From a bacterium (GTDB taxonomy: Bacteria > Patescibacteriota > Minisyncoccia > Phycocordibacterales > Phycocordibacteraceae): 64,000 nucleotides of DNA. The stretch covers positions 448,001-512,000 of the forward strand of contig JBBCGK010000001.1 of NCBI GenBank assembly GCA_037200965.1, read 5' to 3'. The notes beneath the pieces are model-generated. The model worked only from the letters and a program-made list of their open reading frames with translations, was not told the origin of the DNA and ran no database searches. This document shows, piece by piece, positions 5,643-56,085 of the stretch (positions within the stretch are counted from its first letter, which is position 1; every line of letters begins with the position of its first letter). The position numbers were made by a program, and so were the translations under genes.

Positions 5643-5682
<40 letters not shown>

Positions 5683-25931: not shown

Positions 25932-25939
25932 ATACCAGC

Positions 25940-26801: not shown

Positions 26802-26803
26802 AC

Positions 26804-29855: not shown

Positions 29856-29947
29856 CTCGTGTATAGTCCATACGACCGATCTTCCTGACACCAATAGGCA
29901 TCGGCCAAATCGTGATTGCTGACCAACGTTTTGCGCCGAGCGACCGC

Positions 29948-30238: not shown

Positions 30239-30348
30239 ATTAACTCCGATCAAAAATGCGGCTCGATGCTAGTTTAGTGGCTGGCGCAGGGCCAGAGGAA
30301 TAATCTTCGCAAGCGTGCGTCAGGCCACGCCCTACGGTAACGCGTCGA

Positions 30349-31314
30349 TCAGTTCGCCTCGTCGAAAATCCCATTCAGGATCGCCCCAAGCCGCACCCCT
30401 GCCGCCTGCAAGCGCTCTTCCACGATGGCGGCGCGGTCTTCCTTGTAGTTGCCGTCGGGCGCGAAGACGCGAACGGCGCCACCGGTATACGTCTCGCTGT
30501 CTTCGGAATAGCGGCAGGTGGTGCCGGAGAGCGTACAGTATCCGGTGTCGGGCGCGCGGGAGACGGTGAGCGATTCGTTGGCCCATACCATCGGATCGAG
30601 CGACGCCTTCCACGTTGCCCGCTGCTCGTCCGTGATTTCCTTTTGAAGAACATTGCCAAACGCCTCGCGCCCAGGGCCTGCTGGCTTCGTCTGCGCGATG
30701 TGGAGATCACGCATGACTTGTTCGGGAATGCAGGTGTCCCACACGGTATGGAGCGCGGTTTTGCCGTCATAGGCGCAGCCCGAGACGCCCTTCACGCCGA
30801 CGCTGTTGCCGCCGCGATCATCGGCATACGAAATGTGGAGCGGCTGGTGTATGTCGCCGAGCCAGTGCCCGAGGAATTTGAGGGCCGTGCGCTTCTTGTC
30901 GGTTGAGGCATTCGGGTCTTTGAGGATGGCGATATCGGCGGGGATGGCCGTGAAAAGGCACGTCGCCGCATTCACGCACTTGGCCTCGGGGAAGCTCGTC
31001 CAATCGCGCGGCATATTGATGAAGTGCTCCGCCCTCCGGCTGCTTTGCACATCGCCCTTCTCGTCCGGCCAGGTGCAGGCCCCGTGGAAGGTTCTCGGTA
31101 TCTCCTTGCCGTCAGCGTCCTTAAGCGGGGTTTCTGAGCGGATAAGCTTGTTGACCGCCTTGCGGGCCGTCGGCGTGAGCTCCTTGTATGCGATCTCGCA
31201 GACCGCCTCGTGGCCGGTGCCGCCGAAGGCGAGGGCACCGCTCGTTGTGAGACAAAGACTGACGAAGCCACCAGCTCCAAACAGCGCAAGAAGAACCCGC
31301 CGACGTCCACCCAT
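30349..31314 (-). CDS. S1/P1-family zinc-dependent secreted nuclease
   Basis: Signal peptide. FGGTGHEAVCEIAY. HFINMP. LKFLGHWLGDIHQPLH. LHTVWD. These are the S1-P1 nuclease Zn-ligand motifs. Confidence 0.8.
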   Translation of the reverse strand: MGGRRRVLLALFGAGGFVSLCLTTSGALAFGGTGHEAVCEIAYKELTPTARKAVNKLIRSETPLKDADGKEIPRTFHGACTWPDEKGDVQSSRRAEHFINMPRDWTSFPEAKCVNAATCLFTAIPADIAILKDPNASTDKKRTALKFLGHWLGDIHQPLHISYADDRGGNSVGVKGVSGCAYDGKTALHTVWDTCIPEQVMRDLHIAQTKPAGPGREAFGNVLQKEITDEQRATWKASLDPMVWANESLTVSRAPDTGYCTLSGTTCRYSEDSETYTGGAVRVFAPDGNYKEDRAAIVEERLQAAGVRLGAILNGIFDEAN

Positions 31315-31444
31315 GTACCCGCTCCCCCTCACTATTCGTGCCCAGGATGCGAGGACTCGCCCTAGCCGAAGAACGGATGATGCCCGGATGATTTCACCCG
31401 TCCAAGAGGAATGTGCGCCTTAGACTTCGTATCGGGCCGGGCCT

Positions 31445-32350
31445 ATGCTGCTTCTATTGGTGGGGTGTTTCTCAGGGGGTATTGGCATGACTAGCGGCAC
31501 GCGAGTTTTTCCGACGCGTTCGTATCGGGCATCATTTCCCATTCATGCGCTTCTTGCCGTCTTCGCGCTTCTCGTCGCGGGTGCGTATGGCCCGGCCGGT
31601 TCGGCCTTGGCCGCGACCAGCGCGGCGTCCTTCTGCCTTGACGCATGCCCCGAGGGCGCGCCGGCAAAGAACAAGACGGTCGTGCACCATGTCTATGCGC
31701 TCAGCTCGAACCCCGACACGAAATTCGCCGATTGGGTCGCGTACAAGATCTCCAAAGCGACCATCGGGTCGAACTGTTCGCGCAAGTGGGCGAAGGACCC
31801 GGACCTAGCGGCCGGCACCACGCTCAAGCCCGCCGATTACAAGGACATCAGTGCGGCGCTCCAGTCCGACCGGGGCCATCAAGCGCCCTTGGCAAGCCTA
31901 TGCGGCTCGAAGTTCAATGCCGAGGCGAACTATCTCTCGAACATCACCCCACAAAAGTCCGACCTCAATCAGGGCGCATGGGTGCGGCTCGAAACCGCCG
32001 AACGCAAGCTCATTACGGGCGGCACCGCGAAGACCGTGTATACCGTCACCGGGACGCTCTACGAAAAGAAGATGCCGCCGCTTCCCAAGGCGAGCGTCAA
32101 GCACAAAGTCCCTTCGGGCTATTGGAAGATCGTCGCCGTCGAGACGGACGACGGGATCGACGCCGTGGCGTTCGTCATGCCGCAGGATACACCCAAAGCC
32201 GCCGATTATTGCGAAACGCGCACCACCATCGGCGACGTTGAGACGCGCTCGGGCCTCAAGTTCTTCCTCGATCTCAACGAGACCGACCGCACGCAGCTTG
32301 AGGAGAGCGAGGCGAAGACCGGCCTCTATGAGGATTTGGGCTGCGAGTAG
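31445..32350 (+). CDS. secreted DNA/RNA non-specific endonuclease (Serratia nuclease / Endonuclease_NS family)
   Basis: N-terminal signal/TM. Active-site motif SDRGHQAPLAS (DRGH). Confidence 0.8.
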   Translation: MLLLLVGCFSGGIGMTSGTRVFPTRSYRASFPIHALLAVFALLVAGAYGPAGSALAATSAASFCLDACPEGAPAKNKTVVHHVYALSSNPDTKFADWVAYKISKATIGSNCSRKWAKDPDLAAGTTLKPADYKDISAALQSDRGHQAPLASLCGSKFNAEANYLSNITPQKSDLNQGAWVRLETAERKLITGGTAKTVYTVTGTLYEKKMPPLPKASVKHKVPSGYWKIVAVETDDGIDAVAFVMPQDTPKAADYCETRTTIGDVETRSGLKFFLDLNETDRTQLEESEAKTGLYEDLGCE

Positions 32351-32371
32351 CACGAGCGCGGGAAGATACGG

Positions 32372-32660
32372 CATGCGCAAGGCATTCATACTGACGCTGG
32401 TGGCGTTCTCCGCACTTGCGGCAACCCCACTCATCGCGCGGACCACGGATGCGGAAGTCCGGGGACAAATGATCCGCGAGTCCATCGCAAGCTATCCCGG
32501 CAACTGCCCGTGTCCGTACAGCACGATGCGAAACGGGCGCTCCTGCGGCGGGCGAAGCGCGTACAGTCGGCCCGGCGGATATGCTCCGCTGTGCTACCCG
32601 TCTGACGTTTCGGACGATATGGTGCGCGGCTATCGAAGCACGCATGGGCTCGGGAACTGA
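32372..32660 (+). CDS. small secreted Cys-rich hypothetical protein
   Basis: MRKAFILTLVAFSALAATPLIA (signal), then ...SYPGNCPCPYSTMRNGRSCGGRSAYSRPGGYAPLCYP. Confidence 0.45.
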
Positions 32661-32856
32661 TCGATCCGATTGATATCTGGCGAAGCGCGCAAACGCTCAT
32701 CTCGCTCTATGGCGATGAGGCGGAACAGTTCGCGCTTCGCCGCGCCGCTACCCTGCTCGGCGAAGGAGACCGGGAGGGCCATGCGGCAATGGCAAGCGTT
32801 GCGGAAGCGGTGAAGAAGCTGCGGCAGGAGCGGCCCGAAAGCGGCGATGCCGTCCA

Positions 32857-33264
32857 CTAGTCGGCGTCCGGCAGCTTATCGGAAGCCTCGGCAAACTCCC
32901 GCACCAGCGCGACGATGTGCTTGCGCCGGGCGGGCGACTTGACCTGCGCGAACGCTCTCGCAAGCGCCCGCCCGTCGGCGCTCGAAAGCAGCGGCATTTC
33001 TTCCGCGAACAGTGCCGAACGGGCTTTGTCGTATGCCTCGGAAACGAAGTATTCCCAGGGCAGATCAAGCACCACCATCATCCGCAACAGCGCTTCAAGC
33101 GGCAGCCGGTTGGTTCCCTTTTCATACTTCTGCATCTGTTGGAAACTAACGCCGAGGCGCTTTCCGAGAGCGAGTTGCGACAGGCCGCGCAGCGTCCGTG
33201 CGGCAAATATCTTTTGGCCGATAATCTTATTGATCTCTGACGAACTGTGCTTGCGCGGGGCCAT
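32857..33264 (-). CDS. XRE-family (Cro/C1-type) HTH transcriptional regulator
   Basis: IGQKIFAARTLRGLSQLALGKRLGVSFQQMQKYEKGTNR. Confidence 0.75.
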   Translation of the reverse strand: MAPRKHSSSEINKIIGQKIFAARTLRGLSQLALGKRLGVSFQQMQKYEKGTNRLPLEALLRMMVVLDLPWEYFVSEAYDKARSALFAEEMPLLSSADGRALARAFAQVKSPARRKHIVALVREFAEASDKLPDAD

Positions 33265-33340
33265 TCTCAATCCCGTTATACTATCGATCTCGCAAATTCT
33301 ATGGCGCGAAAACCCCATTGTCGCGCGCAATCTCAGCCTG

Positions 33341-34324
33341 TTACGCCTCCTTCATCCACTCCCGGTGCATGCGCTCCCATTCCGGGCGCGGCGCTTCGAA
33401 CTCTTCCCGGAACCACGGCATATGCTCTGGCACGAAGACCGTCTCGCGCAGGAACGCGAGCGTCGATTTGACGGCGGGTTTTGCGGCATGCACGCGGTTA
33501 TATGAGATGTAGAGCTTGCCGGGAAGGCGAAACGCAAGCGGAAGGGCGACGAGGTCCGGGTCGCCAAGCGCGTGGTAGGTAGGTGCGAGCGCGATGCCCG
33601 CGCCAAAATGCAGGCACCGCTCGAAGAAGCTCGTCTGGTTGGTGAGGATCGACACGTTCTTGACGACGTTTCCGCCCGACCATGCGGCCCAGGATGCCGT
33701 GCGCGTCTGATACTGGGCGAGATCGAGCAACCGGTGCTCGCTAAGCGCTTCGCTCGTCTGCGGCGTCCCGTGTTTTTGCAGATAGGACTTCGACGCGAAC
33801 AGGGCGTAATGGACGGTCGCGAGCGGCCTCGACACCTGATCCGAATTTCCCGGATCGTAGAAGTGGATGCGGATGTCGAAGCTGTCGCTTCGGGGCGCGG
33901 TGATGTCCTGATCGGGCGATACCTTGAGCTCAATGTTCGGATGCCGTTCGAGGAAGCTCGGCATGAACTGCGCCAGCCAGAGGCTCGCAACCCCGTCCGC
34001 GACCAGGATGCGGCAGTCGCCTTGAACGCTGCCTCCGCTGTCCTTCGCGTCCCTGCGAAGGAGCGCAATGCATTTGCGCGCCTCAAACGCGTTCGGAAGC
34101 AGACGTTCGCCGAGGTCGGTGAGCGCGCAGCCGTCGGTGCCGCGTATGAATACGCGCCCGCCGATCCACTGTTCGAAGCTGCGCAGCCGCTTGCTCACGG
34201 TTGCCTGCGTTGATCCGAGCATCGCCGCGGCCCGCTTGATGCTGCCGCCCTCGGCGATTGCGAGAAAATAGCGGAGATCGTTCCACTGCTCGGGCGAGGG
34301 GTCATCACTATTGGAAAGTACCAT
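33341..34324 (-). CDS. LysR-family transcriptional regulator
   Basis: N-terminal HTH LRYFLAIAEGGSIKRAAAMLGSTQATVSKRLRSFEQWIGGRVFIR, followed by a ~200-aa substrate-binding domain. Confidence 0.85.
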   Translation of the reverse strand: MVLSNSDDPSPEQWNDLRYFLAIAEGGSIKRAAAMLGSTQATVSKRLRSFEQWIGGRVFIRGTDGCALTDLGERLLPNAFEARKCIALLRRDAKDSGGSVQGDCRILVADGVASLWLAQFMPSFLERHPNIELKVSPDQDITAPRSDSFDIRIHFYDPGNSDQVSRPLATVHYALFASKSYLQKHGTPQTSEALSEHRLLDLAQYQTRTASWAAWSGGNVVKNVSILTNQTSFFERCLHFGAGIALAPTYHALGDPDLVALPLAFRLPGKLYISYNRVHAAKPAVKSTLAFLRETVFVPEHMPWFREEFEAPRPEWERMHREWMKEA

Positions 34325-34425
34325 CTTCCGTCCCTTGGCTTCCGGGCGGCGATAATCGAATGGCAATTTAAGCTCCGGCAACAAAAAAATGCATAAGGCG
34401 CCAGGCGGCGCCGTGGAGTAATTCC

Positions 34426-35592
34426 TTGGAAAAGAACGATTTTAGCGCGATACGAAGCGGTACCTACGGGCCCGAACATGCCGCAGCGCATCCCGATGGG
34501 GGAAGCGTATGGCTGCGTCCGGCCGGGGTCGGGGATATTCCGTTTGTGCATAGCCTGACCGTCTCGGACATCTCCGCCGAAACGGCACCGGAGGAGGTTA
34601 TTCGGGCTGTTCACGCCCGCAATCCCGATGCCCTGTGGCTTATCGAGCGCCAAAGAGGCGGGGAGCCACCGGCCCCTATCGGCTATTTCGGCTTCCTGCC
34701 GCTCACCGATCCCGGTCTCGACGCGCTCAAGGAAGGCGCGCTCGACCGCAAGAGCCCGCCGCTTGAGCTTGTGGCCGAGGGCGGCACGCGTCCGGCGGCG
34801 GTGTACGTGTGGGGCGTCGTGGCGCATCGCCTAGTGCGGGTCACCGCGCCGCTCCTCACCCTCGCGCTTTCGCCTTACATCGACGTTCCCTTCTACACCG
34901 TCTCCCAGACCGAAGAGGGGCTGCGCTCGGCCCGTAGGCGCGGCTTCGTGCCGGTCGATGCGCGGATCGGCGACCGGGGCGGGCTCGTGCTGCTGCCGCT
35001 TGGCAGCCTTCTTGCGCCGCCGCCAAGCAAAGTCGCGCAGCTCGACGTGATCGTGGCCTCGAACGCCGAGCACCTCATGATGTGCGCCTATGTTCGCGGC
35101 GTGGTGTTCGGCGCGGAGCAGCTCGCCCCCTACCGCGAGGAATTCGACGGCAACGACTTCTGCGGCATCCAGCTTCTGGGGTTCGTGAACAACGAGCCTG
35201 CGGCAGTGCTTCGCATCCGTCACTTCGCGTCATTCGCGAAATTCGAGCGGTATGCCGTGCTCGAGCGCTTCCGCAAAACGCGGATCAAGTACGAAATCCT
35301 GGAGTTCGGAATCGAGCTGTGCCGCCGCAAGGGATACACGAAGCTCTACGCGCACTCGCAGGTGCGCCTCGTCCGCTTCTATGAGCGGTTCGGCTTTCGT
35401 CTGTGCGCCGCGCAGCGTCCGCTCGTCTTCGCGGATCACGAATACGTCGAGATCGAAGCCGACCTCGCGCCGCATCCCGAGGCGATCACGACCGCCACCG
35501 ATCCCTACGTGATCATCCGACCCGAAGGGGCGTGGGACAGGCGCGGCGTTCTTGACCAGTCAGCGGCACGGCCCGCGACTAATCCCGTCTAG
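34426..35592 (+). CDS. GNAT-family N-acetyltransferase (tandem acetyltransferase-like domains)
   Basis: Two GNAT-like cores, one near 34.6-34.9 kb and a second ...CAYVRGVVFGAEQ...YTKLYAHSQVRLVRFYERFGF. Transcribed divergently from the LysR gene. Confidence 0.6.
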   Translation: MEKNDFSAIRSGTYGPEHAAAHPDGGSVWLRPAGVGDIPFVHSLTVSDISAETAPEEVIRAVHARNPDALWLIERQRGGEPPAPIGYFGFLPLTDPGLDALKEGALDRKSPPLELVAEGGTRPAAVYVWGVVAHRLVRVTAPLLTLALSPYIDVPFYTVSQTEEGLRSARRRGFVPVDARIGDRGGLVLLPLGSLLAPPPSKVAQLDVIVASNAEHLMMCAYVRGVVFGAEQLAPYREEFDGNDFCGIQLLGFVNNEPAAVLRIRHFASFAKFERYAVLERFRKTRIKYEILEFGIELCRRKGYTKLYAHSQVRLVRFYERFGFRLCAAQRPLVFADHEYVEIEADLAPHPEAITTATDPYVIIRPEGAWDRRGVLDQSAARPATNPV

Positions 35593-36098
35593 GAGTGCTC
35601 GACATGGCCGGAACGCTCGATTGCTTTGTCCGCCTTGTTGAACTCGACACCTGCGTGCGTGAGTTGGCACAGCGCAAGCGCGCGAATAATAGGATCAGCA
35701 TATCCGATCTTGATGACGTTCTCCTGGCGCTTGCTGAAGCTCGGGAAACGATCCAGGACGACGCGTATGACGAGATGGCGAGGCGGCGAGCGATAACAAC
35801 GGCGGACATAATGCAGTTCGCAAAAGATTAGCGAAAGCGCGCGGCTCTATTCAAAACGCGGCCTACGACAAGTTCGCAACTATTCGTCCGACAACACTCG
35901 CCCGATAACGGATCATTCGGCAACCAGAGGATAATGAGTATATCGCGGGAGCGAAGCATAGGAGACGATGCAGTGCATAGTCCGTCATAAATTCAACGGC
36001 GGCATCCTGATGGTAGCTGTATAACAGCGTGGTGCCGGAACTTCCCCTTGTAGCCAATACCGGGCTTCGTTACAAAGCTTCAAGGGGAGGCTATATGC

Positions 36099-37734
36099 AT
36101 GCTTAATCACACCTTTGGAGTGATCTCGCTGGGTCGTTTCCTCACTGCTATACGTCCTGCGCGTTATGCGGTCCGCTCTGCCAATCGAACACGCTTCGGC
36201 CAAGGGCTGGTCTCGGTCCGCACCCTAGTCGTCGCTGCGTGCGTTGCAATGAGTTGGCTAGCCGCATTGCCGCAAGCCGCCATCGCGAGCAGCGTCTTGA
36301 TGAGCGTGCCAGGCGAAAGCGACGTAAACTCGGCGGGTGCCTTCACATATTCACTTCCTATTGCAGTTCCGCCCGGGACTGCCCGCATCGTACCGCGACT
36401 GTCGCTTGATTATTCCAGTCAAAGCGGCAATGGCCTCCAAGGCCTCGGCTGGTCGCTTTCCGGATTGCCGGCAATAGGAAGATGCGCGCGCACGGTGGCG
36501 CAAGACGGCGTGCATGGCAGTGTCAATTACGACGGCAGCGACAAATTCTGCTTGGAAGGCCAGCGCCTAGTCGCCCTAAGCGGCGTCTATGGCGCGAACA
36601 ATACGGAATATCGTACCGAAATAGAGAGTTTCACCAAAATTATTTCATACGGAACGGCGGGTAACGGGCCAGCCTCGTTCAAAGCGTGGACCAAGTCCGG
36701 TCAAATCCTGGAATTCGGAAACACGGCGGATTCCCGTATCGAAGCGGTCGGCAAGACAACGGTGCGCGCGTGGGCCGTCAATAAGGTTTCCGATGCCAAA
36801 GGAAACTACGTCACGGTCGAATACACCGACGACCAAACTAACGGAGAGGCGTATCCGGTTCGGATTGATTATACCGGCAATCCCAACGCAACGCCGGTGG
36901 TTATGCCGTACAATTCCGTGCAGTTCACATACACAACGCGCGCAGATATCACGATTGCCTATCAGGCCGGTTCGCAGCAGAAGATCACAAAACTTCTCAC
37001 CAATATTAAGACTTATCAAGCCGCGAATTTGGTTTCCGACTATCGCCTTGCCTATCAAGCCGGCTCATCGCTCGCACATTCGCGTCTAACGTCCATCACG
37101 TTATGTGATGGGTCGGGTACGCCGGTATGCCTTGCCCCCACGACCTTTGGCTGGCAGGGTGGCAGCGGTAGCCTGCCGACAATGACCGGGACCGCATCCA
37201 CTATCATTCCGACGCAAAGCGGTGATTTCAACGTTGACGGATTAACAGACCCCTTTGTCAAAGCCCCGTATTTTGGAACTCAGAGCGGAACGTTCGTCGC
37301 GAGCGGCATGACTATAAGCTATACCGACCCCATATCGGGATTGCCGTGGTCGGGTCTAACGGCTTTCCCCAACACAATGGTCGGGTTTGTATTGGGTGAT
37401 ACCGACGGAGACGGGTATAGCGACGTCACCGCGATGCGGGGTATCGCACATGGCGCTTATGCCAGGTTGGTGGTTACGCGCAACGACCAGCTCGGAAATC
37501 TTGGTCAGATCGGCCTGATCGATCCGCTGCATGCTGGCGCCATATTCAGCGGCGACTTCAATGGAGACGCGCGCACGGACGTTTTCGTGACGGGTGTAGC
37601 TTCTTATAACAGTACGACGTATCTGAGCCTGGGGACCGGATCGTTCACCGCCATCAACATGAGTTCGGTATATGAACCCATCACGACCGCCGATTTTGAT
37701 GGTGACGGATGCACCGATTTCTTGGGATCGACTA
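36099..37734 (+). pseudogene. N-terminal portion of an SpvB-domain / FG-GAP-repeat polymorphic-toxin (Tc-toxin TcB / RHS-like) protein, cut at repeat 3
   Basis: SpvB-type N-terminus (RLSLDYSSQSGNGLQGLGWSLSGLPAIGRCARTVAQDGVHGSVNYDGSDKFCLEGQRLV). FG-GAP-like Ca-binding repeats (FNVDGLTD, GDTDGDGYSDV, GDFNGDARTDVF, ADFDGDGCTDFLGS). The homology ends exactly where the 36-mer begins. The 160 aa after the repeat are frame-read-through junk. Confidence 0.7.
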
Positions 37735-37770
37735 GTTGCACAACCTCCTTTTTACGAACGATCCTGCAGG
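37735..37770 (-). repeat. 36-bp array repeat, copy 3
   Basis: Exact match to the 36-mer. It cuts into the SpvB/FG-GAP ORF. Confidence 0.95.
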
Positions 37771-37784
37771 TTTCCGTTAATCTT

Positions 37785-39125
37785 CTAAGTCTCTTGTTGA
37801 GACGCAACACAGCCCCACGCCGCTTTTACCGAGTCATAGATAAAGCCTACCGTCAGAACCTTGGATATAACCGTCGTGGTTGGCAACGCCGTGCCTTCTG
37901 CCACGAACGACGCCCCCCAGGTAATCGCCCGGGCCGTACCGTCGTCTTTGATCCTGAAGATGAGCGTCTGGAAGTTCGTGGGTGTACCGGAGAGATTTGT
38001 CGTCATCGACGTGATCGCGGTCGCAAGAGCAGTAATCGTCACGGCGTCGCACCCATCGCTATTCACTGTAGGGGTTGCCGAAGAAACAATCGTCGTTATG
38101 CGTGGAGTATTTCTCTTATTTGCAAGAGTCTGTGTACCATTGTTAGTCACGACACTGTCAGCGTTTGTGCCTGCAACCGAGATTCTCAAATCTCCTGTTC
38201 CAACGGTAAGCACTCCTGAGGTGTGCGTTGCAACCCAGTTACCGTTACTAATGTTCCAGGTAAAACCAGTAGCACTAAAGAGATCGGCCCATCCAAGCGC
38301 GGTCGTCCCAAGAGCGGCAATATCATTCGTGACCGGGGAAAGAGCGGAGGAGGTAAGTTGTATCGTTCCTGTTCCGTTGATAGCCAGACCAAGCGTATTG
38401 GTTGTAGGAAGGTAGAGGCGATTACCGGTAGCAGTTGAAGAGGTAGGAGCAAAGCCAGCCGCAGTTGCCAGCGATGCCAACGTCAAAGCTCCGGCGTCGG
38501 TCAAGGTTGCATTGGTGGATGTTGCTTGTGCGCCGCGCGAAGTACCATCGGACCGAAGTATAGATTCATCTGTGGCAAAAGTGGCGGCAGCGGTGACTAC
38601 ATTACTCGGTATATCGCTTGTAAGAGCGACGGTACCCGTGGACGCCGGAAGGGTAATGGTGTTAGTTCCAGCGATTGCCGTAGGGACGAGGGCGATGGTA
38701 CCGGAAGTTGAACCCGAGAAGGTTACACCCTGGGTACCGGAAATGATGCCAGTGGTGTCAGCAATAAGCACTGCCGAGTTCTGGATCAGCTTACCAGTGG
38801 TAGTGTCGAAGCGGGCCACGGCGTTATCAGTTGCTGAAGCCGGGCCTACAACATAGGTAGCAAGGGAAGCAGTCGTAGGAATAACATAGCCGCTTTGGAG
38901 CGCTATAGCGATCGTTCCGGAAGTAGTGATCGGTACGCCGGATACCGTAAGTCCTGTCGGTACCGTAGCGTCAACGGATGTAACCGTACCTCCTCCTCCG
39001 GGGAGGTCTATAAGAAGCCTGTGCGTCGTCGGGTCTGCATATAGACGCACAGGCGTCTTGCCGTCAGCGCTTGAAGCTGCTATCAGCGTTGGAACATCGT
39101 TCTGGTCTCGGTAAGCATCAGCCAT
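37785..39125 (-). CDS. phage tail-fibre-like protein (Thr/Gly/Ala-rich beta-helical)
   Basis: MADAYRDQNDVPTLIAASSADGKTPVRLYADPTTHRLLIDL, then ~400 aa of T/G/S/A-rich repeats. The stop lies 14 nt from repeat 3. Confidence 0.55.
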   Translation of the reverse strand: MADAYRDQNDVPTLIAASSADGKTPVRLYADPTTHRLLIDLPGGGGTVTSVDATVPTGLTVSGVPITTSGTIAIALQSGYVIPTTASLATYVVGPASATDNAVARFDTTTGKLIQNSAVLIADTTGIISGTQGVTFSGSTSGTIALVPTAIAGTNTITLPASTGTVALTSDIPSNVVTAAATFATDESILRSDGTSRGAQATSTNATLTDAGALTLASLATAAGFAPTSSTATGNRLYLPTTNTLGLAINGTGTIQLTSSALSPVTNDIAALGTTALGWADLFSATGFTWNISNGNWVATHTSGVLTVGTGDLRISVAGTNADSVVTNNGTQTLANKRNTPRITTIVSSATPTVNSDGCDAVTITALATAITSMTTNLSGTPTNFQTLIFRIKDDGTARAITWGASFVAEGTALPTTTVISKVLTVGFIYDSVKAAWGCVASQQET

Positions 39126-39127
39126 AA

Positions 39128-39318
39128 TCAGGTACTTTGTACGAGTAATTCCCCGGCACTATTGGCGTAGAGCACCACAGGCGTCTTGCCGTCAGCGCTT
39201 GAGACAGCCATGAGTGCAGGAACAAAGTTTGCGTCCCGCAGATCGTCTACCGGCCCAAAGTCCGACCCGGTAGTGTCGTCGTCCGCCATAAGCGCATGTG
39301 TTGAAGGGTCAGCAACGA
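39128..39318 (-). pseudogene. partial tandem duplicate of the tail-fibre N-terminus, running into repeat 4
   Basis: ...FVPALMAVSSADGKTPVVLYANSAGELLVQ is paralogous to DVPTLIAASSADGKTPVRLYADPTTHRLLI of the downstream gene. The frame begins inside the 36-mer. Confidence 0.5.
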
Positions 39319-39354
39319 GTTGCACAACCTCCTTTTTACGAACGATCCTGCAGG
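39319..39354 (-). repeat. 36-bp array repeat, copy 4
   Basis: Exact match to the 36-mer. Confidence 0.95.
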
Positions 39355-39451
39355 AGTATGAGTACTGATACCGTCCAATCTGCCATTGAATATGCGCGAC
39401 ACTCGCCGTCGTGACGACGTTGAGTTAAGTCAATGGCGATTTATGTTACTG

Positions 39452-39973
39452 TCACCGGACCGGCACGAACCCTTCGGGAAGAAACTGCGTCGGGTCCTTC
39501 CACGGTTCAATAGCAACTGCTTTGGGGTATTTGCTTATCATGTAAGCATCGGTGCAATACACCAAACTTTCGGGATCATCGTCCGAAGGCTCAAGGCCTG
39601 AAAATTCAACCATCACAGATTTCTGGTTGGTAATTTTTCCAAAGGTGTCAATGAACCGCTTGATTTTGTCAAACTCACGCACAAAATCGTCGGGCTCAAA
39701 TAGATAGGAATACACTACTACTGTATTCTCGCCGACGATCCGTTCGGAACCGTCCTCATTTTTCACGCGGAAACGCCCAGCGGCGAGCGGCAATTGGGTT
39801 ACACCGCCATTGATCCGCACCATAATTTCCATGGCGCTATCGACCCATTTGTCAAAATTTTCAACAGGCTTCTGATCGCGATCTTGGTTAGGCAAATAAA
39901 CTGCAAACCGTTGTACCGATTCAGATGTATCGGCACCTAGCGCGGTCTTGAGGTCAAAATCTACGAGCGCCAT
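39452..39973 (-). CDS. hypothetical protein
   Basis: 173-aa ORF that is AT-richer than the core genome. No confident motif. Confidence 0.45.
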   Translation of the reverse strand: MALVDFDLKTALGADTSESVQRFAVYLPNQDRDQKPVENFDKWVDSAMEIMVRINGGVTQLPLAAGRFRVKNEDGSERIVGENTVVVYSYLFEPDDFVREFDKIKRFIDTFGKITNQKSVMVEFSGLEPSDDDPESLVYCTDAYMISKYPKAVAIEPWKDPTQFLPEGFVPVR

Positions 39974-39994
39974 GATCGCTTCCTATTAGCCATC

Positions 39995-40024
39995 AATGAA
40001 AAGGCCCCATAGCCGGGGCCTTAA
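39995..40024 (-). terminator. rho-independent terminator after the PRTase-like gene
   Basis: Minus sense reads AAGGCCCCGGCUAUGGGGCCUUUUCAUU. Confidence 0.6.
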
Positions 40025-40059
40025 AGTAGGCAAAATGCCAAATTGCAACGCTGATGCCG

Positions 40060-40695
40060 CTACCGCGGTCTTGAAGGTCTCCGAATTCCGAGCACCGTTT
40101 TAGGGTCCCGCTTGATCTTTAGAAACCGTCCAAATCCCGAACGAGCGTCTTCAGGTTTCTCCGCTTGTTGGGAAGCTGAACGAATCGCTGTCACTATCTC
40201 GTTAGCAGCTTCTGATATGGGCGGCAAATTTTGCCGGTTATAGTCGCCTGGCGGGATTCCCGCGTGCTTCTTTTTCATATGATTTTCTCCTGTTTCTTCA
40301 CAGGGTTGCGACCCATCGGTCTCAGCCCCGTGTTGATCGGGAGAAAGCCCTTCAAGAATCGGGCCGCGTACGTCGGTTTCCCAGGTTAAGGCTTCGACGC
40401 GAATATCCTGGCCACGGTCCGTCCTTATGCTTTCGCGATGGGGACCATACCCACATAGTACCACAGCGGCATGCGTAGTCGCGCCCGAAATCTCGTGGAC
40501 TATATCCGCAGCAGCGCCAATACCAGCGCCCGTTACTATCAAGTCATAGACCATCAAGATGCGATCACCGGAAAGCGGTTTGTCTGCCGTTATTGCTACG
40601 CCCTTCGCCCAACGCGTCTCGCGATAGATGCAGGCGGGCAATCCGGTTTCGGCGACGAGGGACGAGAGCATCGAAATCGCGCCGACCGGCCCCAT
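40060..40695 (-). CDS. phosphoribosyltransferase (PRTase) domain protein
   Basis: PRPP-binding motif RILMVYDLIVTGAGIGAAADIV. The start abuts repeat 5 at ~35 nt. Confidence 0.6.
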   Translation of the reverse strand: MGPVGAISMLSSLVAETGLPACIYRETRWAKGVAITADKPLSGDRILMVYDLIVTGAGIGAAADIVHEISGATTHAAVVLCGYGPHRESIRTDRGQDIRVEALTWETDVRGPILEGLSPDQHGAETDGSQPCEETGENHMKKKHAGIPPGDYNRQNLPPISEAANEIVTAIRSASQQAEKPEDARSGFGRFLKIKRDPKTVLGIRRPSRPR

Positions 40696-40729
40696 CTCTT
40701 TTTCGATAAAGCACAATCGCGTAATGCCG

Positions 40730-40765
40730 GTTGCACAACCTCCTTTTTACGAACGATCCTGCAGG
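40730..40765 (-). repeat. 36-bp array repeat, copy 5
   Basis: Exact match to the 36-mer. It cuts into the patatin-like ORF. Confidence 0.95.
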
Positions 40766-41363
40766 AAACCATGAGAGAACCCGAGTTGATCTCGGTGGCC
40801 ACGATCTTCAAAGGCGACAACTCGTTAAATTCCTCATAGTTCAGGTCAGCGAACCGAATTCGATCAGGCACTCCATCGTGATCACGACCATTTGCGGCAT
40901 ATAATTCCCGCATACGTTCTCGAAGAACTGTGTTGATGAATTCACGAATGGGCGTTGTGGTGAAAAAGCCTAAGTGCCGCCATATGCGCAGCATTCCAAA
41001 CGTAACTAGGGGAGCTGTTAAAAAAGACAATAATACACCCCCCAACGCCGTAGCGGACAATGCCCATCGAAGTCCCTGGCGGAGGCGAACAAATCTACGC
41101 CAATCATCAGCCCCCAATAACGTTACGGGGGTCAAGTTATGTAGGCTGAGAATATTTTGATCCCTAATGTCGGGATTCATCAAAGTCGAAGCACTGTATC
41201 CCGCCGCGACTAGCGTTGCCACGATCGCGCCAGCTGACGCCCCGGCTACACCTACGAAGGCGAGCCCATTCTTCGCGGCACCCTCCAAAGCACCAATATG
41301 CGCTATGCCCTTAGCACCGCCACCTTCGAATATGCCAAAGGCTGGCCTCTTAGCGTCCATCAC
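40766..41363 (-). pseudogene. patatin-like phospholipase, C-terminally truncated at repeat 5
   Basis: Oxyanion hole FEGGGAKGIAH and nucleophile elbow GASAGAIVATL are present. The reading frame runs straight into the 36-mer (…EINSGSLMVS|CRIVRKKEVVQ) before any DGG catalytic-Asp motif. Confidence 0.65.
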
Positions 41364-41496
41364 TGTATGTATCCTTTCGCAAATCAGGTCGGGGCCTGCA
41401 CAAACGACAGAACATCGGACAGGCTGGTGAAATAATGAGATACCAGCCTTCGCACATTGCTGTTCCGCATACAGATACAGCAGTTGCTAGTTCAAA

Positions 41497-43068
41497 TCAG
41501 TTCAGTTGCTCCCGCACCAACGAAAGATCGTTGAACAACGTTCTCGTAAGATTCGGGATTTTTTCCAGTTTGTCTGCTTGTATTAACTTCGCCATAAAAC
41601 GAATGCTTCCCTCCACTCGCTCGTCATAGAATATTTCGTGCAGAAACTTCCGCCCCTGCCGCAAATCCGTAGCATCAAACAGAAATTCCAGCTTGGCTTC
41701 GTTATCGACCATAGCAACTGCACGCCAAAAGAATCGAGGAAAATTCGCTGTCAGGAGGCTCTTGCGGACTATCTTGCTTAGGGAGGAGCGCGAAACAATC
41801 TCGCGTTTCAGATCGCTTGGGCCATTCAAAAATATGTCCCACTCGAAACGAGCCATATCACTATTGCTCGATAATTTTTTAAGCATCTCTAAAATATGAT
41901 CAAATGCCAGGATAGCATCGTACACGTCGTCAAATCGGACGCGAATTTTGCTATAGAGCGGCACGAGACACAAATCCGCGCGAGCACGGGTTATCTTCGT
42001 CCCACGCTTTCGAGACCAAGTTGTCGTTATGATGTTAGATGGGCCGCTCAGCTTGATCTCAGAGTATGGGCCGATGCCGTCGTCATGCGCATACAGTTTG
42101 GTTATGCGCGTCGCCCGTAGAAGAAAACCCGTGCGAGGTTCGGGTACTATGGGACCAGTTGTGGGCCCAAGGCCGCTGAGTGCGACCGCGTGAAATGCTC
42201 GTTTGCTTTTCTTGGAGCGTTCTAAGTTGAAGTCAAAACTCAGAATGATCGGAATATTGCCCCTCAAGAATGCATTTGCTGCGGCTTGGATATTGGCTCG
42301 CTCGGGCGTCATAAACAAATCCGCTTCGAGACCGACATTGCGCAAAACGCCAGCCATTTGATCGATATCCAAGCCGTCGTTCGGGAGAGCTAGGCCAGCT
42401 GTTGGCAGCGAAGCAAACGCTCGTTTGGTTATTTCAATAGGTGATAAGATTGGATTGTCATACAAATTCGCCGTGCCATGCAGTGTAGTCCACAGAGCGC
42501 TGGTAGCGCATGCGCCAACCTCTCGGTCTTGTTCTTGAAAAGGCAGCGCACGTACAGGCAGATCTATGCCGAAAAGATTTGGTACATATCCGCGCTCAGT
42601 GAGGAAGCGACTCGATGGATTACTCCCAACCGGCGCCAAACACGTTCGCCCAATGATGGTTTCGGGAAGAGGTTTGACAACTACAAAGCCGTGATATCCC
42701 AAGACGTCGAACCTACACTCACCGCGGCCCGAAACGAAAAGCGCTTCGACCATATCTTTATCGAACGGTTGCCGAAAAAAGTGAATTCGTGAACATTCTT
42801 TCGGATAGTTCGCGTGGCATCTCGCGTAGTATCCTGTATGATCTTCGGCGAAATGCTTGTCGATGTAGTCGCGCTCAAATACAAGAGTTTCGATTTTCGC
42901 GGCTTCACAGTAACGAGCTAGAAAAATGACCTGGGGCTTTTGTGCAATTTGCTCCAGTCTAGGTTTAAATGCTCCGGCAACAAAAAGCGCTACCAAGTTC
43001 TCTCGATTGTACTTGAGTACTTGGTAGCGCTCGCCCATGTGATCTAACTGAATATCCGCGTACGTCAC
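41497..43068 (-). CDS. hypothetical protein with a possible papain-like (C39-type) cysteine peptidase motif
   Basis: 523 aa, AT-richer. The segment EQDREVGACATSALWTTLHG resembles the Q...C motif of C39 peptidases. This is weak. Confidence 0.45.
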   Translation of the reverse strand: MTYADIQLDHMGERYQVLKYNRENLVALFVAGAFKPRLEQIAQKPQVIFLARYCEAAKIETLVFERDYIDKHFAEDHTGYYARCHANYPKECSRIHFFRQPFDKDMVEALFVSGRGECRFDVLGYHGFVVVKPLPETIIGRTCLAPVGSNPSSRFLTERGYVPNLFGIDLPVRALPFQEQDREVGACATSALWTTLHGTANLYDNPILSPIEITKRAFASLPTAGLALPNDGLDIDQMAGVLRNVGLEADLFMTPERANIQAAANAFLRGNIPIILSFDFNLERSKKSKRAFHAVALSGLGPTTGPIVPEPRTGFLLRATRITKLYAHDDGIGPYSEIKLSGPSNIITTTWSRKRGTKITRARADLCLVPLYSKIRVRFDDVYDAILAFDHILEMLKKLSSNSDMARFEWDIFLNGPSDLKREIVSRSSLSKIVRKSLLTANFPRFFWRAVAMVDNEAKLEFLFDATDLRQGRKFLHEIFYDERVEGSIRFMAKLIQADKLEKIPNLTRTLFNDLSLVREQLN

Positions 43069-43529
43069 ACTGTGAACGGGATACGCCGACGGTCAGGAGA
43101 AATCTGGTTGGCTTGTTCTCGACTTTCAATTGCCTTGAGCATTGGCGAAAGACGCTTAGCGACTTGCGCAGTAAGATCAGTTCTGGAGGCCGTCGCCTTG
43201 GACTTGGGCCGTGCAGAACTCTTCGTCTTTTTGTGACGCATAGCGCAACCTCCAATTTCGGTGAGCAGGATGTTGCCCTCAGTTCCAGCCCGGCGGGTAT
43301 AAACTCCAACACGGGGATCAAAATCAAGCTCATGGACTTGACTTCCTGGAACGGGGCCGCCTAGGGCTCCCCTGTAACGAATCAGCCCTGTTCTTAACGT
43401 ACCACGAGCGCCTTCGTATCCCCAATATTTTGTATGTGGATAATCCACCAACACAAGTTCTTTGAATGGTGAGGCTGGCCGTTGCCTTTCCTCAGTGGCG
43501 TCGCCGTCCGTTGACCCAATCGCCTGCAT
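43065..43529 (-). CDS. hypothetical protein
   Basis: 154-aa ORF whose stop overlaps the next gene start (ATGA). Confidence 0.4.
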   Translation of the reverse strand: MQAIGSTDGDATEERQRPASPFKELVLVDYPHTKYWGYEGARGTLRTGLIRYRGALGGPVPGSQVHELDFDPRVGVYTRRAGTEGNILLTEIGGCAMRHKKTKSSARPKSKATASRTDLTAQVAKRLSPMLKAIESREQANQISPDRRRIPFTV

Positions 43530-43668
43530 AACAATTTAATGCCTTCCTTCTGGCAGCAGACCACTAGGAGCGGCAGACGGCCGTTCATTATCAGCGTGGA
43601 TCATTGGCTGGACCGAGCCCCAATCGGTGACTGATTCGTACGGCTAAAGACCGCTCGGGTCAACTAAG

Positions 43669-43704
43669 GTTGCACAACCTCCTTTTTACGAACGATCCTG
43701 CAGG
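43669..43704 (-). repeat. 36-bp array repeat, copy 6 (cas-proximal)
   Basis: Exact match to the 36-mer, 32 nt from the cas2 stop codon. Confidence 0.95.
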
Positions 43705-43736
43705 AGTCCGTGTATATTGAGCGGTAACGCGAATTA

Positions 43737-44033
43737 CTAGACAATCTCAAAGGACTTGATCTTATAATACTCCCCGATAACGGCATCGGCAGTTGAATTA
43801 AGTGCGCATGATTTGCAGGAAGAAAATAGATGCAGCCGATCCCGTTTTCCCGTGAATAGCGATCGCATCTTCATTTCAAATTCCCGGCGCTCCTTAAAGG
43901 AAAGGCGTCCGACGTAGAGAGTCTGTTGAAGTGCGGATAAACCATAGTCCTTTGATAACTTTTCCGCGCGGATCTGGCGCTGCCGATTGGCGGTTCTCCA
44001 GGCGACTATTGCAAGGAAGCATGGATCATTCAT
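43737..44033 (-). CDS. cas2: CRISPR-associated endoribonuclease Cas2
   Basis: 98 aa. FLAIVAWRTANRQRQIRAEKLSKDYGLSALQQTLYVGRLSFKERREFEMKMRSLF..KRDRLHLF fits the Cas2 pattern (l.lv.YDi..rrr.k..k.L..yG.r.Q.Svf.c.l...). It is ATGA-coupled to cas1. Confidence 0.75.
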   Translation of the reverse strand: MNDPCFLAIVAWRTANRQRQIRAEKLSKDYGLSALQQTLYVGRLSFKERREFEMKMRSLFTGKRDRLHLFSSCKSCALNSTADAVIGEYYKIKSFEIV

Positions 44034-45085
44034 GGTGCCGCATATTCAAACGGCACATATAAGGGCGCTTTTTCAAGAAATACCCGGCTTAAGAGCTCGC
44101 TCTGTTCCGTAATGGTATTGCGGAGCGTACGGCGTTTCCCGTGATGGAGGACTTTCGACTCGAGGCGCTTAAGCACCGCCTCAACCACCTTGCTCTTTCC
44201 TTGCGCAGAAAGCCGATATTCGATCTTGCTTACCTGCTCGAAATCGCCGCGCTTGCCAAGTTCCTGAGAAATGAAGAGCGGCATGACTGCAGCGTCGACG
44301 ACGGGGACCCGAAACTCTTCGACCAGATCGAGGACGAGCGCGGGCTTGCCGTAACGCTCGGAATGATAAAGTCCGAGATACGGGTCGAGACCGATATAAA
44401 GGCACGCCCGCTCGACTTCGTTATAGAGGATGCCGTATCCGTAATTAAGAGCGCTGTTGAACTTGTCCCTGCCTTGCGGTATCCGGCCCGGGAACTTAAA
44501 AAGCGATTTCATGCCTTGCCAATAGCGCTCTGCAATGGATCCTTCAAGGCCAAGCAGTTCCTCGTTCACCCGGTTGCTCGGAAGCAGCTTCGCTATCGAC
44601 TCAAAAACCGCCTCCGCCTGCATCCGCTCCTTCGCATTCTCCGCACCGTATCGGTCGGCAAGATGGCGCATAAAGCGGATTTGGTTGCGGCACTTACCGA
44701 CAACGAAGGTACGCGCAAGTTCGAAGGATTTAGCCGGATCGGAGGAAGTCGTAAGCTGTGCGCGGCGCAATGTCGCGAGCCCCTTCGGGTCGCTTGAGAA
44801 AATGCGCCCGACGGGTTTCCCAAATGCGCCGAGATAGACGATATCGACTTCGTGCTCGAGCGCGAGTTGCACCGCATGCATGGAAATGGAGGACGGACGG
44901 AGTATGACGATCTTAGCAAGCCGCCGGACCGGATACTCCTTCTTAACCCGGAGAAGCTTTACCGCAGTTCCCCGCTTGCGACGCCTGCCACCCCCAAGCG
45001 GCTTTCGCGGAACCGGGAGACTGACCGTAATACGCTCGCCCGTCGCGCCGATGAAGCTGCCATAGGTATCTATCAGCAAATCCAT
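44030..45085 (-). CDS. cas1: CRISPR-associated integrase Cas1
   Basis: 351 aa. GRDKFNSALNYGYGILYNEVERACLYIGLDPYLGLYHSERYGKPALVLDLVEEFRVPVVD is the Cas1 catalytic-core signature. N-terminal beta domain MDLLIDTYGSFIGATGERITV. Confidence 0.9.
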   Translation of the reverse strand: MDLLIDTYGSFIGATGERITVSLPVPRKPLGGGRRRKRGTAVKLLRVKKEYPVRRLAKIVILRPSSISMHAVQLALEHEVDIVYLGAFGKPVGRIFSSDPKGLATLRRAQLTTSSDPAKSFELARTFVVGKCRNQIRFMRHLADRYGAENAKERMQAEAVFESIAKLLPSNRVNEELLGLEGSIAERYWQGMKSLFKFPGRIPQGRDKFNSALNYGYGILYNEVERACLYIGLDPYLGLYHSERYGKPALVLDLVEEFRVPVVDAAVMPLFISQELGKRGDFEQVSKIEYRLSAQGKSKVVEAVLKRLESKVLHHGKRRTLRNTITEQSELLSRVFLEKAPLYVPFEYAAP

Positions 45086-45091
45086 GGGGCG

Positions 45092-45120
45092 TATATACTA
45101 CCGCCTTGACCTAGTGTCAA
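45092..45120 (-). promoter_or_regulatory. near-consensus sigma70-type promoter immediately upstream of cas1
   Basis: Minus sense reads TTGACA-ctaggtcaaggcggtag (17 nt)-TATATA. The -10 element ends 6 nt before the cas1 ATG, giving a near-leaderless transcript. Confidence 0.5.
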
Positions 45121-45140
45121 GGATCACGCAACGCCCTCGC

Positions 45141-46571
45141 TTACCCAAGCCTCGGAAACAGATTCTCCGGTTTCTTATTTTCCGTAACCGCCTCTTTTAT
45201 TTTCTCGCTCGTCGACGGCATGAAAGGACTGAGGAAACGGGCAATCCAATAGAGCTCGGCGGCGAGCCCGGCAATGATCGCTCTTCCCTTTTCCGGATCG
45301 TTCTTCACGAGCTTGAACGGCTCTTCGGCCGTGATGCGTTCGTCGGCAGCTTGTATGCGCGCGAATATGTAATCGAGCGCCTGATCGAAACGGAAAGCTG
45401 CGAACGCATCAATATATTCTTTCGGAAACGCTTCCGACGGGGCAGGACGCGCGACCGGCTCCGGAAGGTGCGTCTCGGCAAGCTTCATCACACGCGCGAC
45501 GAGGTTCCCGAGGCCGTTCGTAAGATTCGCGGTATACCACTCATCAAGCCGCTCCCACGTGACATCGGAATCTTCAACCGGATGCACGTGCCGAAGCAGC
45601 ATGTAGCGGGTGGCGTCCGTACCGTATTTCGCAACAAGCTCGCCCGGGCTTATGACATTCCCGAGACTCTTGCTCATCCGCTGCCCGCCGGAATTTATGA
45701 ATCCGTGATAGAAGACCTGATCGGTGTTCTTAATGCCGGCCGAAAAGAGCATCGCCTGCCACATAAGCGACTGGAATCGCACCTGATCCTTCCCTGCCGT
45801 CTGGAGCGTTTGTCCTTCCTCCCAGAACTTCTTGAAATTGCCGTCCGCGTCTCCGGGCCATCCGAGCGCCGAGATGTAGTTCGTAAGAGCGTCGAACCAG
45901 ACGTACATAACCTGCGTATCGTCTCCCGGAACCGGAACCCCCCACGAAAGCCGCGCTTTCTCGCGCGAGATACTGAAATCCTCGAGCCCTCCTTTCACGA
46001 AGCTGAGCGCCTCCTCCCTCCTCCACTCAGGAATTACGACATCCGGACGGGCGAGGTACTCGATCAGGCGGTCCTGATACTTTGAATATCTAAAGAAATG
46101 ATTTTCTTCCGAAATCTCCTGGAGCTCGAGATTTGGGTGGAGCACGCAATGCCCGTCGGCCAGCTCCTTTTCCGTCTTGTACGCTTCGCATCCGACGCAA
46201 TACCAGCCAACATAGGCCTTCTTATATATATCCCCCGCTGCCTCGCACCGCTTCCACATCTCCTCGGCAGCCCTGATATGCTCGGGGCTCGTCGTCCGCA
46301 TGAACCCGTCGTTAGTGAGTGCGAGCGTCTCCCTAAGCGAGCGTACCCGTCCCGCATAGTCGTCGACGTAGGCCTGCACATCCTGTCCTACTTTTTCGGC
46401 TGACTGGAATATCTTTTGCCCGTGCTCGTCGGTTCCAGTCGAGAAAAATACTTCTTCGCCAGAAAGCCGCCAGAAACGCGCAAGCGCGTCGGCCTGCACA
46501 AGCTCGAGCGCGAAGCCGATATGCTGATCGGCATTCACGTACGGAATCGTTGTCGTTACGTATCTCGCCAT
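45141..46571 (-). CDS. metG: methionyl-tRNA synthetase
   Basis: HIGH-type motif (PYVNADQHIGFA) and KMSKS (QRMSKSLGN). CxxC knuckle (WYCVGCEAY...CVLH). Confidence 0.9.
   Translation of the reverse strand: MARYVTTTIPYVNADQHIGFALELVQADALARFWRLSGEEVFFSTGTDEHGQKIFQSAEKVGQDVQAYVDDYAGRVRSLRETLALTNDGFMRTTSPEHIRAAEEMWKRCEAAGDIYKKAYVGWYCVGCEAYKTEKELADGHCVLHPNLELQEISEENHFFRYSKYQDRLIEYLARPDVVIPEWRREEALSFVKGGLEDFSISREKARLSWGVPVPGDDTQVMYVWFDALTNYISALGWPGDADGNFKKFWEEGQTLQTAGKDQVRFQSLMWQAMLFSAGIKNTDQVFYHGFINSGGQRMSKSLGNVISPGELVAKYGTDATRYMLLRHVHPVEDSDVTWERLDEWYTANLTNGLGNLVARVMKLAETHLPEPVARPAPSEAFPKEYIDAFAAFRFDQALDYIFARIQAADERITAEEPFKLVKNDPEKGRAIIAGLAAELYWIARFLSPFMPSTSEKIKEAVTENKKPENLFPRLG

Positions 46572-52713: not shown

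Positions 52714-52724
<11 letters not shown>
52164..52724 (-). CDS. recO: DNA repair protein RecO (short form)
   Basis: [48 protein letters not shown]... is a RecO N-terminal OB-fold. Confidence 0.6.

Positions 52725-56085
<3,361 letters not shown>

Follow-up and report, generated by a model that had tools for sequence, protein, structure and literature searches.

A patatin-like gene fragment at the end of a probable kilobase-sized CRISPR spacer next to cas1-cas2 in a Patescibacteria bacterium

Introduction

Canonical CRISPR adaptation modules, such as those linked to type I-B and III-A systems, consist of a Cas1 with an E/H/D/E set of catalytic residues, an adjacent cas2 gene, a short leader and identical direct repeats of 36-37 nt, which number the inserts plus one and separate foreign inserts of ~30-45 nt. 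Here, we describe a locus sharing this anatomy in a stretch of 64,000 nucleotides, hereafter the window (positions 448,001 to 512,000 of the forward strand of contig JBBCGK010000001.1, assembly GCA_037200965.1), from a Patescibacteria bacterium related to Kaiserbacteria with a small circular genome (960 kb). A preliminary description of the window had drawn attention to a patatin-like phospholipase gene truncated at a 36-nt repeat, and this repeat belongs to the locus in question. One of the inserts has a perfect donor match, and the repeat sequence has a relative in a Methanospirillum type III-A locus. The differences from the canonical module lie in the inserts, which measure 140 nt to 12 kb (median ~1.5 kb) over this and related loci and are randomly oriented, and in the genes present, since no Cas6, effector or Cas4 gene is found in the window or in the annotated ±10-kb flanks of the relatives.

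Two other classes of element invite comparison. In casposons, a Cas1-family integrase inserts kilobase-sized DNA and duplicates its target. Kilobase insertion by a Cas1-family integrase would be common to both, and one related unit (L008) is flanked by an 18-nt direct repeat; in contrast to casposons, the inserts described here are mutually unrelated and lack terminal inverted repeats, Cas1 resembles CRISPR Cas1 more than it does the casposase 6opm, and a casposon identity was rejected on the presence of Cas2, the lack of polB and a duplicated unit that is the whole 36-37-nt CRISPR repeat (36 nt in the window) instead of 14-15 bp. Integrons likewise are tandem stores of foreign gene-sized segments with a recurring site beside an integrase gene; however, the repeats here are identical and not variable attC hairpins, and the segments are arbitrary pieces with cut genes and not whole promoterless genes. 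With no IntI tyrosine recombinase beside the array and segment ends that cut genes at a random rate, an integron identity was rejected as well. Animal PIWI-interacting RNA clusters bear no evolutionary relation to the locus and provide a functional analogy, to be taken as a lead only: they too are stores of random mobile-DNA fragments in either orientation, and the array could similarly act via long transcripts.

On anatomical criteria, the locus is a CRISPR adaptation locus in everything tested except spacer size. We consider it quite likely that the patatin-like gene is a dead fragment at the leader-distal end of the first spacer in an array of kilobase-sized spacers next to cas1-cas2, and that these fragments were inserted by Cas1-Cas2.

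Results

The patatin-like gene ends at a repeat before its catalytic Asp

The patatin-like open reading frame (ORF; 40596-41363, minus strand, 255 aa, GTG start) is made of two parts. Residues 1-199 (40766-41363, minus strand) form a patatin-like phospholipase fragment without the catalytic Asp, as determined from Pfam, alignment and tblastn, and the remainder (40596-40765, minus strand) is a non-patatin read-through tail crossing repeat 5 into the adjoining spacer S4. Both N-terminal motifs are intact, as the preliminary description had stated: the glycine-rich oxyanion motif (GGxR/K) is read as FEGGGAKG at residues 12-19 and the nucleophile elbow (GxSxG) as GASAG at residues 41-45 (within GVAGASAGA), of which G45 is invariant and G41 and S43 are near-invariant in the alignment. 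The match to the Pfam Patatin domain (PF01734, E=3.7e-13) covers only profile positions 2-118 of 191 and hence falls short of the full domain. Codon 200 spans the border with the 36-nt repeat, the translation reading ...EINSGSLMVS up to the junction and CRIVRKKEVVQ... from there on, i.e. the repeat and then the sequence of the next segment.

We aligned the ORF with nine relatives, the full-length ones being 306-337 aa long. All of them run past the junction, via AEAVAASIAIP..FKP, to (Y)ADGGL, so that their catalytic Asp lies ~40 residues after the point at which the window ORF diverges; no DG[GA] motif occurs upstream of this point in the window ORF. The frame thus enters repeat 5 (40730-40765, minus strand, exact copy) before any DGG/DGA motif, just as had been claimed, full-length homologues do not end at the junction, and ~80-120 C-terminal residues including the DGG Asp are lost. 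The preliminary description had also proposed a search for the missing part. When six full-length relatives were compared with the whole window by tblastn, only 41378-40767 aligned, ending at residues 183-230 of relatives of 306-335 residues (with the exception of a low-identity match of P0034, 30%, that drifts to 40674), and the missing C-terminus was found nowhere else in the window.

Among 5.8 billion proteins searched, the fragment itself was recovered (P0001, annotated in NCBI), the other relatives being at most 48-49% identical and coming from other bacteria. Two full-length relatives are complete genes, each followed by a partner gene of 206-250 aa, which is absent beside the window fragment. 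A weak match of the fragment to a PADLOC phospholipase effector model was observed. Compared with the patatin-like phospholipases of PF01734, which include effectors of defence systems, the window gene therefore has in common the N-terminal half with the GGGxKG oxyanion loop and the GxSxG nucleophile, and differs by the loss of both the C-terminal part and the downstream partner. Since the catalytic Asp is missing, the product (199 patatin residues followed by a 55-residue nonsense tail) is predicted to be unable to act as a Ser-Asp lipase, in agreement with the catalytic incompleteness previously noted; the gene would be an inert remnant and not a defence effector of this organism.

Six identical repeats adjoin cas2 and cas1

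The 36-nt repeat is present in six exact copies on the same strand, and shuffled versions of the window contained no such copies. Read on the minus strand, the leader-proximal copy is repeat 6 (43669-43704; CCTGCAGGATCGTTCGTAAAAAGGAGGTTGTGCAAC on the cas strand), which belongs to the same family as the repeats of related loci and of canonical outgroups. It is followed by repeat 5, repeat 4 (39319-39354), repeat 3 (37735-37770), repeat 2 (26766-26801) and repeat 1 (24550-24585), all exact copies on the minus strand, the last closing the array on the leader-distal side, with the start of tatD 16 nt away. A short leader of 32 nt (43705-43736, minus strand) separates the cas2 stop from the first repeat and ends with GGACT, most relatives having (G)GCT.

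The cas1 gene (44030-45085, minus strand, 351 aa) is recognized by Pfam Cas_Cas1 (1.1e-63) and NCBIfam cas1 (1.4e-65), its best PADLOC model being Cas1b over the full length. Residues E181, H241, D253 and E256 are invariant among 16 clade members, and matches in the PDB reach 1.8e-31 with CRISPR Cas1, better than with the casposase 6opm (7.6e-20). Overlapping the cas1 stop by 4 nt, the adjoining gene (43737-44033, minus strand, 98 aa) probably encodes a divergent Cas2. The window protein matches Pfam CRISPR_Cas2 below the cut-off (E=0.0034) and PADLOC Cas2b with 9.4e-07, and a profile built from 12 clade members gives, among PDB entries, ten top matches that are all Cas2-family chains (best 0.0069; three of them deposited under generic names), with no similarity between the window Cas2 and outgroup Cas2 detected by BLASTP. 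The clade alignment displays a conserved CxxC motif (window residues 73-76), and the usual N-terminal Asp is absent (SW-T instead of YD).

Six identical repeats located 32 nt from cas2-cas1 constitute a CRISPR array, and the 36-mers are its repeats. Cas1 with its catalytic residues, an adjoining Cas2, identical 36-nt repeats beside a leader and foreign spacers are all found; short regular spacers (about 26-72 nt) are not, the window spacers being 1375-10933 nt long. No other cas or effector gene was detected in the 64-kb window, and no Cas6, Cas4 or effector gene in the ±10-kb flanks of three relatives with listed gene calls; the array neighbours in the window are tRNA ligases, a transporter, tatD, ribosomal genes and rRNA. 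The exact 36-nt repeat is absent from the genome, metagenome and viral collections searched. Neither a CRISPR-DR nor any other Rfam family was found at the repeats, and RNAalifold returned no consensus structure for 30 repeat variants; the terminal inverted repeat TGCA(C)/(G)TGCA is paired in 84% of cases without covariation and is uninformative on an RNA role.

The segments between repeats are foreign DNA with ends inside genes

From the leader outward, the five spacers measure 2903, 1375, 1548, 10933 and 2180 nt. All are foreign DNA with ends inside genes, and their GC content is 0.49-0.54 in four out of five, versus 0.58-0.59 for the neighbouring chromosome. Spacer S5 (40766-43668, minus strand), the first one, is bordered by exact repeats on both sides and contains a 154-aa ORF, a complete 523-aa ORF (41497-43068, minus strand) and, at its leader-distal end, the patatin N-terminal fragment. 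With a GC content of 0.506 and nearest relatives at 48-49% identity in other bacteria, it has the foreign origin that the preliminary description had held plausible; no S5 donor was found among plasmids. The family of the 523-aa protein comprises more than 500 members of ~520 aa, lacks a Pfam domain and is found in Phycisphaerae, Armatimonadota, Pseudomonas and others beside conjugation or defence-type genes; besides the organism's own copies, no protein more than 48-49% identical is present in the 5.8-billion-protein collection. This ORF is preceded by a 58-aa ORF in L006 and in one relative (L062). A conserved pairing of the patatin with the 523-aa protein was considered and found to be unsupported in four neighbourhoods.

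Spacer S4 (39355-40729, minus strand, 1375 nt) carries a PRTase-like ORF that is cut at its N-terminus and open to the repeat, as well as a 173-aa ORF without relatives in viral contigs. In S3 (37771-39318, minus strand, 1548 nt) we found one or more genes of phage tail-fibre type (phrog_3030, 9.5e-23), the 5' ORF being open to the repeat, with matches in a mycobacteriophage and a Methylophilaceae phage and 379 relatives in IMG/VR viral contigs. An internal repeat of S3 (39037-39110 versus 39165-39238; 74 nt, 74% identity, 128 nt apart) corresponds to two tandem N-terminal tail-fibre modules. The longest spacer, S2 (26802-37734, 10933 nt, no strand assigned), starts inside a serine-recombinase gene, continues with a TrwB/DUF87 gene and breaks off within an SpvB/FG-GAP gene (Pfam, PHROG), with open frames at both ends. 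In S1 (24586-26765, plus strand, 2180 nt), a MazG-like gene is represented by its 3' third, alongside a short adenylosuccinate-synthetase-type gene and a 250-aa ORF.

The preliminary description had counted the patatin as a second independent case of a repeat junction cutting a gene. Further cases are indeed at hand, as the MazG-like, serine-recombinase, SpvB, tail-fibre and PRTase-like ORFs are open to a repeat as well, but the repeat did not cut a resident gene: on the opposite side of repeat 5 lies the unrelated PRTase-like fragment and not the remainder of the patatin gene. A DNA fragment already ending inside the patatin gene was inserted as a 2.9-kb spacer. Truncation, other cut genes and foreign origin all stand; what had been missed is that the 36-mers are CRISPR repeats 32 nt from cas2-cas1.

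Spacer S1 is identical to part of an integrative element

S1 is identical to positions 9687-11866 of L002, with 0 mismatches over 2180 nt. L002 is located on a 4,003,360-bp contig of the same assembly, within an integrative element encoding a serine recombinase, a tyrosine integrase, a relaxase, coupling-protein homologues and AlpA. The MazG-like gene is whole in L002 (297 aa), and only its last 102 codons are present in the array, in a frame open to the repeat. Identity between S1 and L002 ends exactly at both repeats, and the L002 flanks are unrelated to the repeat. With a donor devoid of the repeat and an identity that stops at the repeats, a linear piece was therefore copied from a longer molecule and placed between repeat copies, an arrangement which is the product expected of spacer integration and not of recombination at a pre-existing repeat. 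In addition, window 26803-27799, in S2, is 71% identical to L002 1014-1 and has the same serine-recombinase and TrwB/DUF87 gene pair.

The pairing of the MazG-like gene with a short adenylosuccinate-synthetase-type gene on this element (S1 24595-26692; L002 9111-11793) is an observation of its own: the latter scores 361.8 bits with PRK04293 (cut-off 368) and 219 with the PurZ model (cut-off 300), and the pair could be a PurZ-type nucleotide-modification module.

The array is recovered from three datasets

The window contig is circular, the 960,259-bp record of GCA_037975565.1 ending at window 32699/32700 so that the window wraps around its ends. A 22-kb contig of GCA_015655515.1 (L006) is 99.945% identical over window 33291-46000, a stretch with cas1, cas2 and four repeats together with the intervening spacers. 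The third assembly, GCA_015689235.1, has a 6,629-bp contig whose genes and their spacing agree with those of window 26625-33253, a stretch that spans both repeat 2 and the wrap point. Logan short-read unitigs from two runs end at or inside the repeats, as expected with k=31 and a 36-nt repeat; in L004, one of these unitigs, 28 nt of repeat 1 are joined to S1.

Related loci share the leader-repeat unit and kilobase-sized spacers

We then compared the window with related genomes, viewed as loci with ±10-kb flanks, some from chromosome-level metagenome-assembled genomes (MAGs). Cas1 relatives at 40-88% identity are found in MAGs of Patescibacteria (Kaiserbacteria, Adlerbacteria, Taylorbacteria, Nomurabacteria, Paceibacterota) and in some otherwise-labelled bins, and some of the labels outside Patescibacteria may be binning errors. 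In 21 distinct loci, a 36-37-nt repeat (CCTGCA...TCGCAAAAAGGAnnTTGTGCAAC) starts ~30-45 nt after cas2, the leader mostly ending with (G)GCT. The 43 spacers measured, from 17 arrays (WIN, L013-L043), are 140-10,933 nt long with a median of 1,473 nt, and further ones are 183, 549, 7,672 and 12,050 nt long; no spacer of normal size is present among the 43+ spacers of the 21 arrays. Lengths of 1.2-1.6 kb are shared by 14 out of 43 spacers, pointing to a favoured fragment size. The arrays hold few inserts (0-7 observed), and only a single repeat is present in seven loci with several kb of downstream sequence. Beyond this clade, Cas1 relatives at no more than 39% identity (Methanospirillum, Methanocalculus, Bacteroidales and metagenomic contigs) are accompanied by a similar 37-nt repeat (...AAACAAGGACTGCAAC) with a spacing of 59-87 nt, the Methanospirillum stamsii locus being a type III-A system with Cas10, Csm2-5 and Cas6.

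We asked how spacer ends are placed relative to genes. The longest open frame at spacer ends has a median of 102 codons, with 72% reaching at least 60 codons, which is to be compared with 119.5 codons and 77% at random points of the neighbouring chromosome, and 46 codons and 24% in shuffled spacers. The coding fraction of spacers is 0.89; 22 of them are mostly sense and 17 mostly antisense with respect to the array (p=0.52), and most clade spacers are lower in GC than the adjoining chromosome. They contain, e.g., PMT_2 glycosyltransferase, polyprenyl synthetase, ATP-grasp and dCTP-deaminase-like genes, and a protein-kinase domain is cut at a spacer end in L025. By these signatures, the inserts are arbitrary fragments of foreign coding DNA and not selected gene cassettes, the cut patatin being an ordinary instance. 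A conserved cassette behind three ~3.5-kb spacers (L029, L030, L042) was considered and rejected, as their ORF layouts differ.

Several loci display particular arrangements. In L041 (10003-11083), one spacer is made up of the 3' two-thirds of cas1 together with cas2 and the leader, ending exactly at the leader-repeat junction, and in L031 (3038-11402) a complete cas1-cas2 lies between two repeats. The 12,050-nt spacer links L038 and L041 (contig_16314). Some genomes harbour several cas1-cas2-repeat modules with identical repeats (L028, L031, L038 and L041 in one MAG; L029 and L047 in another), in bins labelled FCPU426 or proteobacterium. In L008, a unit of cas1, cas2, leader and single repeat is flanked by the 18-nt direct repeat AGGGAGTATGAGCGGGAT (9969-9986 and 11419-11436), which may be the target duplication of a mobile adaptation module; the region upstream is structured-looking and has no Rfam match. 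In L025, a tRNA-Arg gene (9849-9923) ends 78 nt upstream of cas1.

Other features of the window

Away from the array, the 23S rRNA gene (1882-6226, minus strand) measures 4345 nt versus 2925 nt for the model and contains a group I intron (2304-2520), further insertions in this gene being likely. A class I tRNA ligase of the Ile/Val/Leu type (52714-56085, minus strand, 1123 aa) harbours a histidine-phosphatase domain (residues 502-674) within its catalytic domain.

Discussion

From the anatomy of the array, Cas1-Cas2 integration of long fragments may be inferred as follows. Cas1-Cas2 would capture both ends of a long linear DNA and attach one to each border of the leader-proximal repeat; the repeat ends would be cut in a staggered manner and the gaps filled, duplicating the whole repeat, as in ordinary spacer acquisition. 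The distance between the attack sites (36-37 bp) would be kept, and the length of the insert would go unmeasured, i.e. without the ~35-bp length ruler. As fragment ends are arbitrary, genes at the ends would arrive already cut, as exemplified by the patatin. The L041 spacer ending at the leader-repeat junction and the flanked L008 unit both fit Cas1 action at the leader-repeat border.

The same arrays might instead have been ordinary ones whose short spacers were later filled by mobile-element insertions or recombination, Cas1-Cas2 being uninvolved. Insertion sequence elements, like other mobile DNA, are known to insert into CRISPR arrays, and two of the window spacers come from integrative or conjugative elements. 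However, there is no remnant of a short spacer anywhere, none of the 43+ spacers being shorter than 140 nt; the identity with the donor runs from the first base after one repeat to the last base before the next, and the segments are arbitrary pieces with genes cut at both ends instead of whole elements with their own ends. We regard this explanation as unlikely. The repeats could also be the recombination sites of a cassette system, integron-like or relying on another recombinase, to which cas1-cas2 would be merely adjacent: same-orientation repeats between gene-sized segments do look like cassette arrays, and cas1-cas2 or part of it is found between two repeats in L031 and L041. This is very unlikely in view of a S1 donor without the repeat at either end, spacer ends that cut genes at the rate of random points, random orientation and homology of the repeats with those of canonical arrays, and also because no recombinase is conserved beside the arrays, cas1-cas2 and the leader being always present.

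That the 36-mers are dispersed regulatory cassettes driving downstream genes, with a stop codon, AGGAGG and GTG inside, is suggested by the cas-strand repeat, which reads TAAAAAGGAGGTTGTG, and by two cut ORFs which can start at its GTG. We find this highly improbable: AGGAGG and GTG are separated by only 2 nt, canonical archaeal CRISPR repeats share the AAGGA...TGCAAC part, the spacer genes face both ways, and promoter-like sites are not enriched. An assembly artefact joining unrelated contigs through a short repeat would explain why short-read assemblies break at these repeats and why S1 has an identical counterpart on another contig of the assembly. Three assemblies nevertheless agree, and a unitig from another run carries the junction of repeat 1 and S1. 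Moreover, such joining presupposes that every piece has the repeat at its ends, precisely the finding at issue, and the pattern recurs in many unrelated MAGs, chromosome-level ones included, leaving the artefact with hardly any credibility.

Several points weigh against insertion by Cas1-Cas2. Known Cas1-Cas2 complexes measure about 30-40 bp, so a different substrate-binding mode must be assumed for the putative insertion of long DNA by this pair. The profile scores that identify the 98-aa gene as Cas2 are weak, albeit consistent. No end motif or protospacer-adjacent motif (PAM) is visible in the spacers compared, and only one donor, that of S1, was found, so neither a PAM nor an end rule can be derived. 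The same five spacers are present in all three datasets of the organism, with no acquisition event caught, and the 10.9-kb S2 could represent more than one insertion with a lost repeat. Finally, the search for effectors covered the 64-kb window and the ±10-kb flanks, and effectors are possible elsewhere in the genomes.

Regarding function, selection on the integrase and its site is favoured by three points: the catalytic residues are conserved, the leader-repeat unit is preserved over a wide clade, and effector genes are missing from the regions viewed. A main role in the capture of gene cassettes is disfavoured by the randomness of both spacer ends and orientation. We rank the possible purposes of the array as follows: a memory of foreign DNA acting via long transcripts or homology without a classical effector, then occasional gene capture, and then no selected function. 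Our best guess is a long-sequence memory that would act through transcripts or homology. More broadly, we lean slightly towards a model in which a Patescibacteria-specific Cas1-Cas2 clade has lost the length ruler and inserts foreign fragments of 0.14-12 kb, the effector-less arrays serving either as a long memory (antisense or homology, with housekeeping RNases or RecA only) or as a route of gene acquisition. In the literature available as full text, whose coverage is incomplete so that an earlier description is possible, we found neither kilobase spacers nor this Cas1 clade described.

If this holds true, the clade would provide a natural, site-specific and homology-independent integrase of kilobase DNA, which would change the view of what CRISPR integrases can do, represent a living intermediate between casposases and spacer integrases, and be an enzyme of interest for large-DNA insertion. 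For the organisms themselves, the spacers would be a direct genomic record of the foreign DNA that reaches ultra-small episymbiotic bacteria, and the perfect 2.2-kb copy from the integrative element of a co-occurring 4-Mb genome may help to link these bacteria to their hosts.

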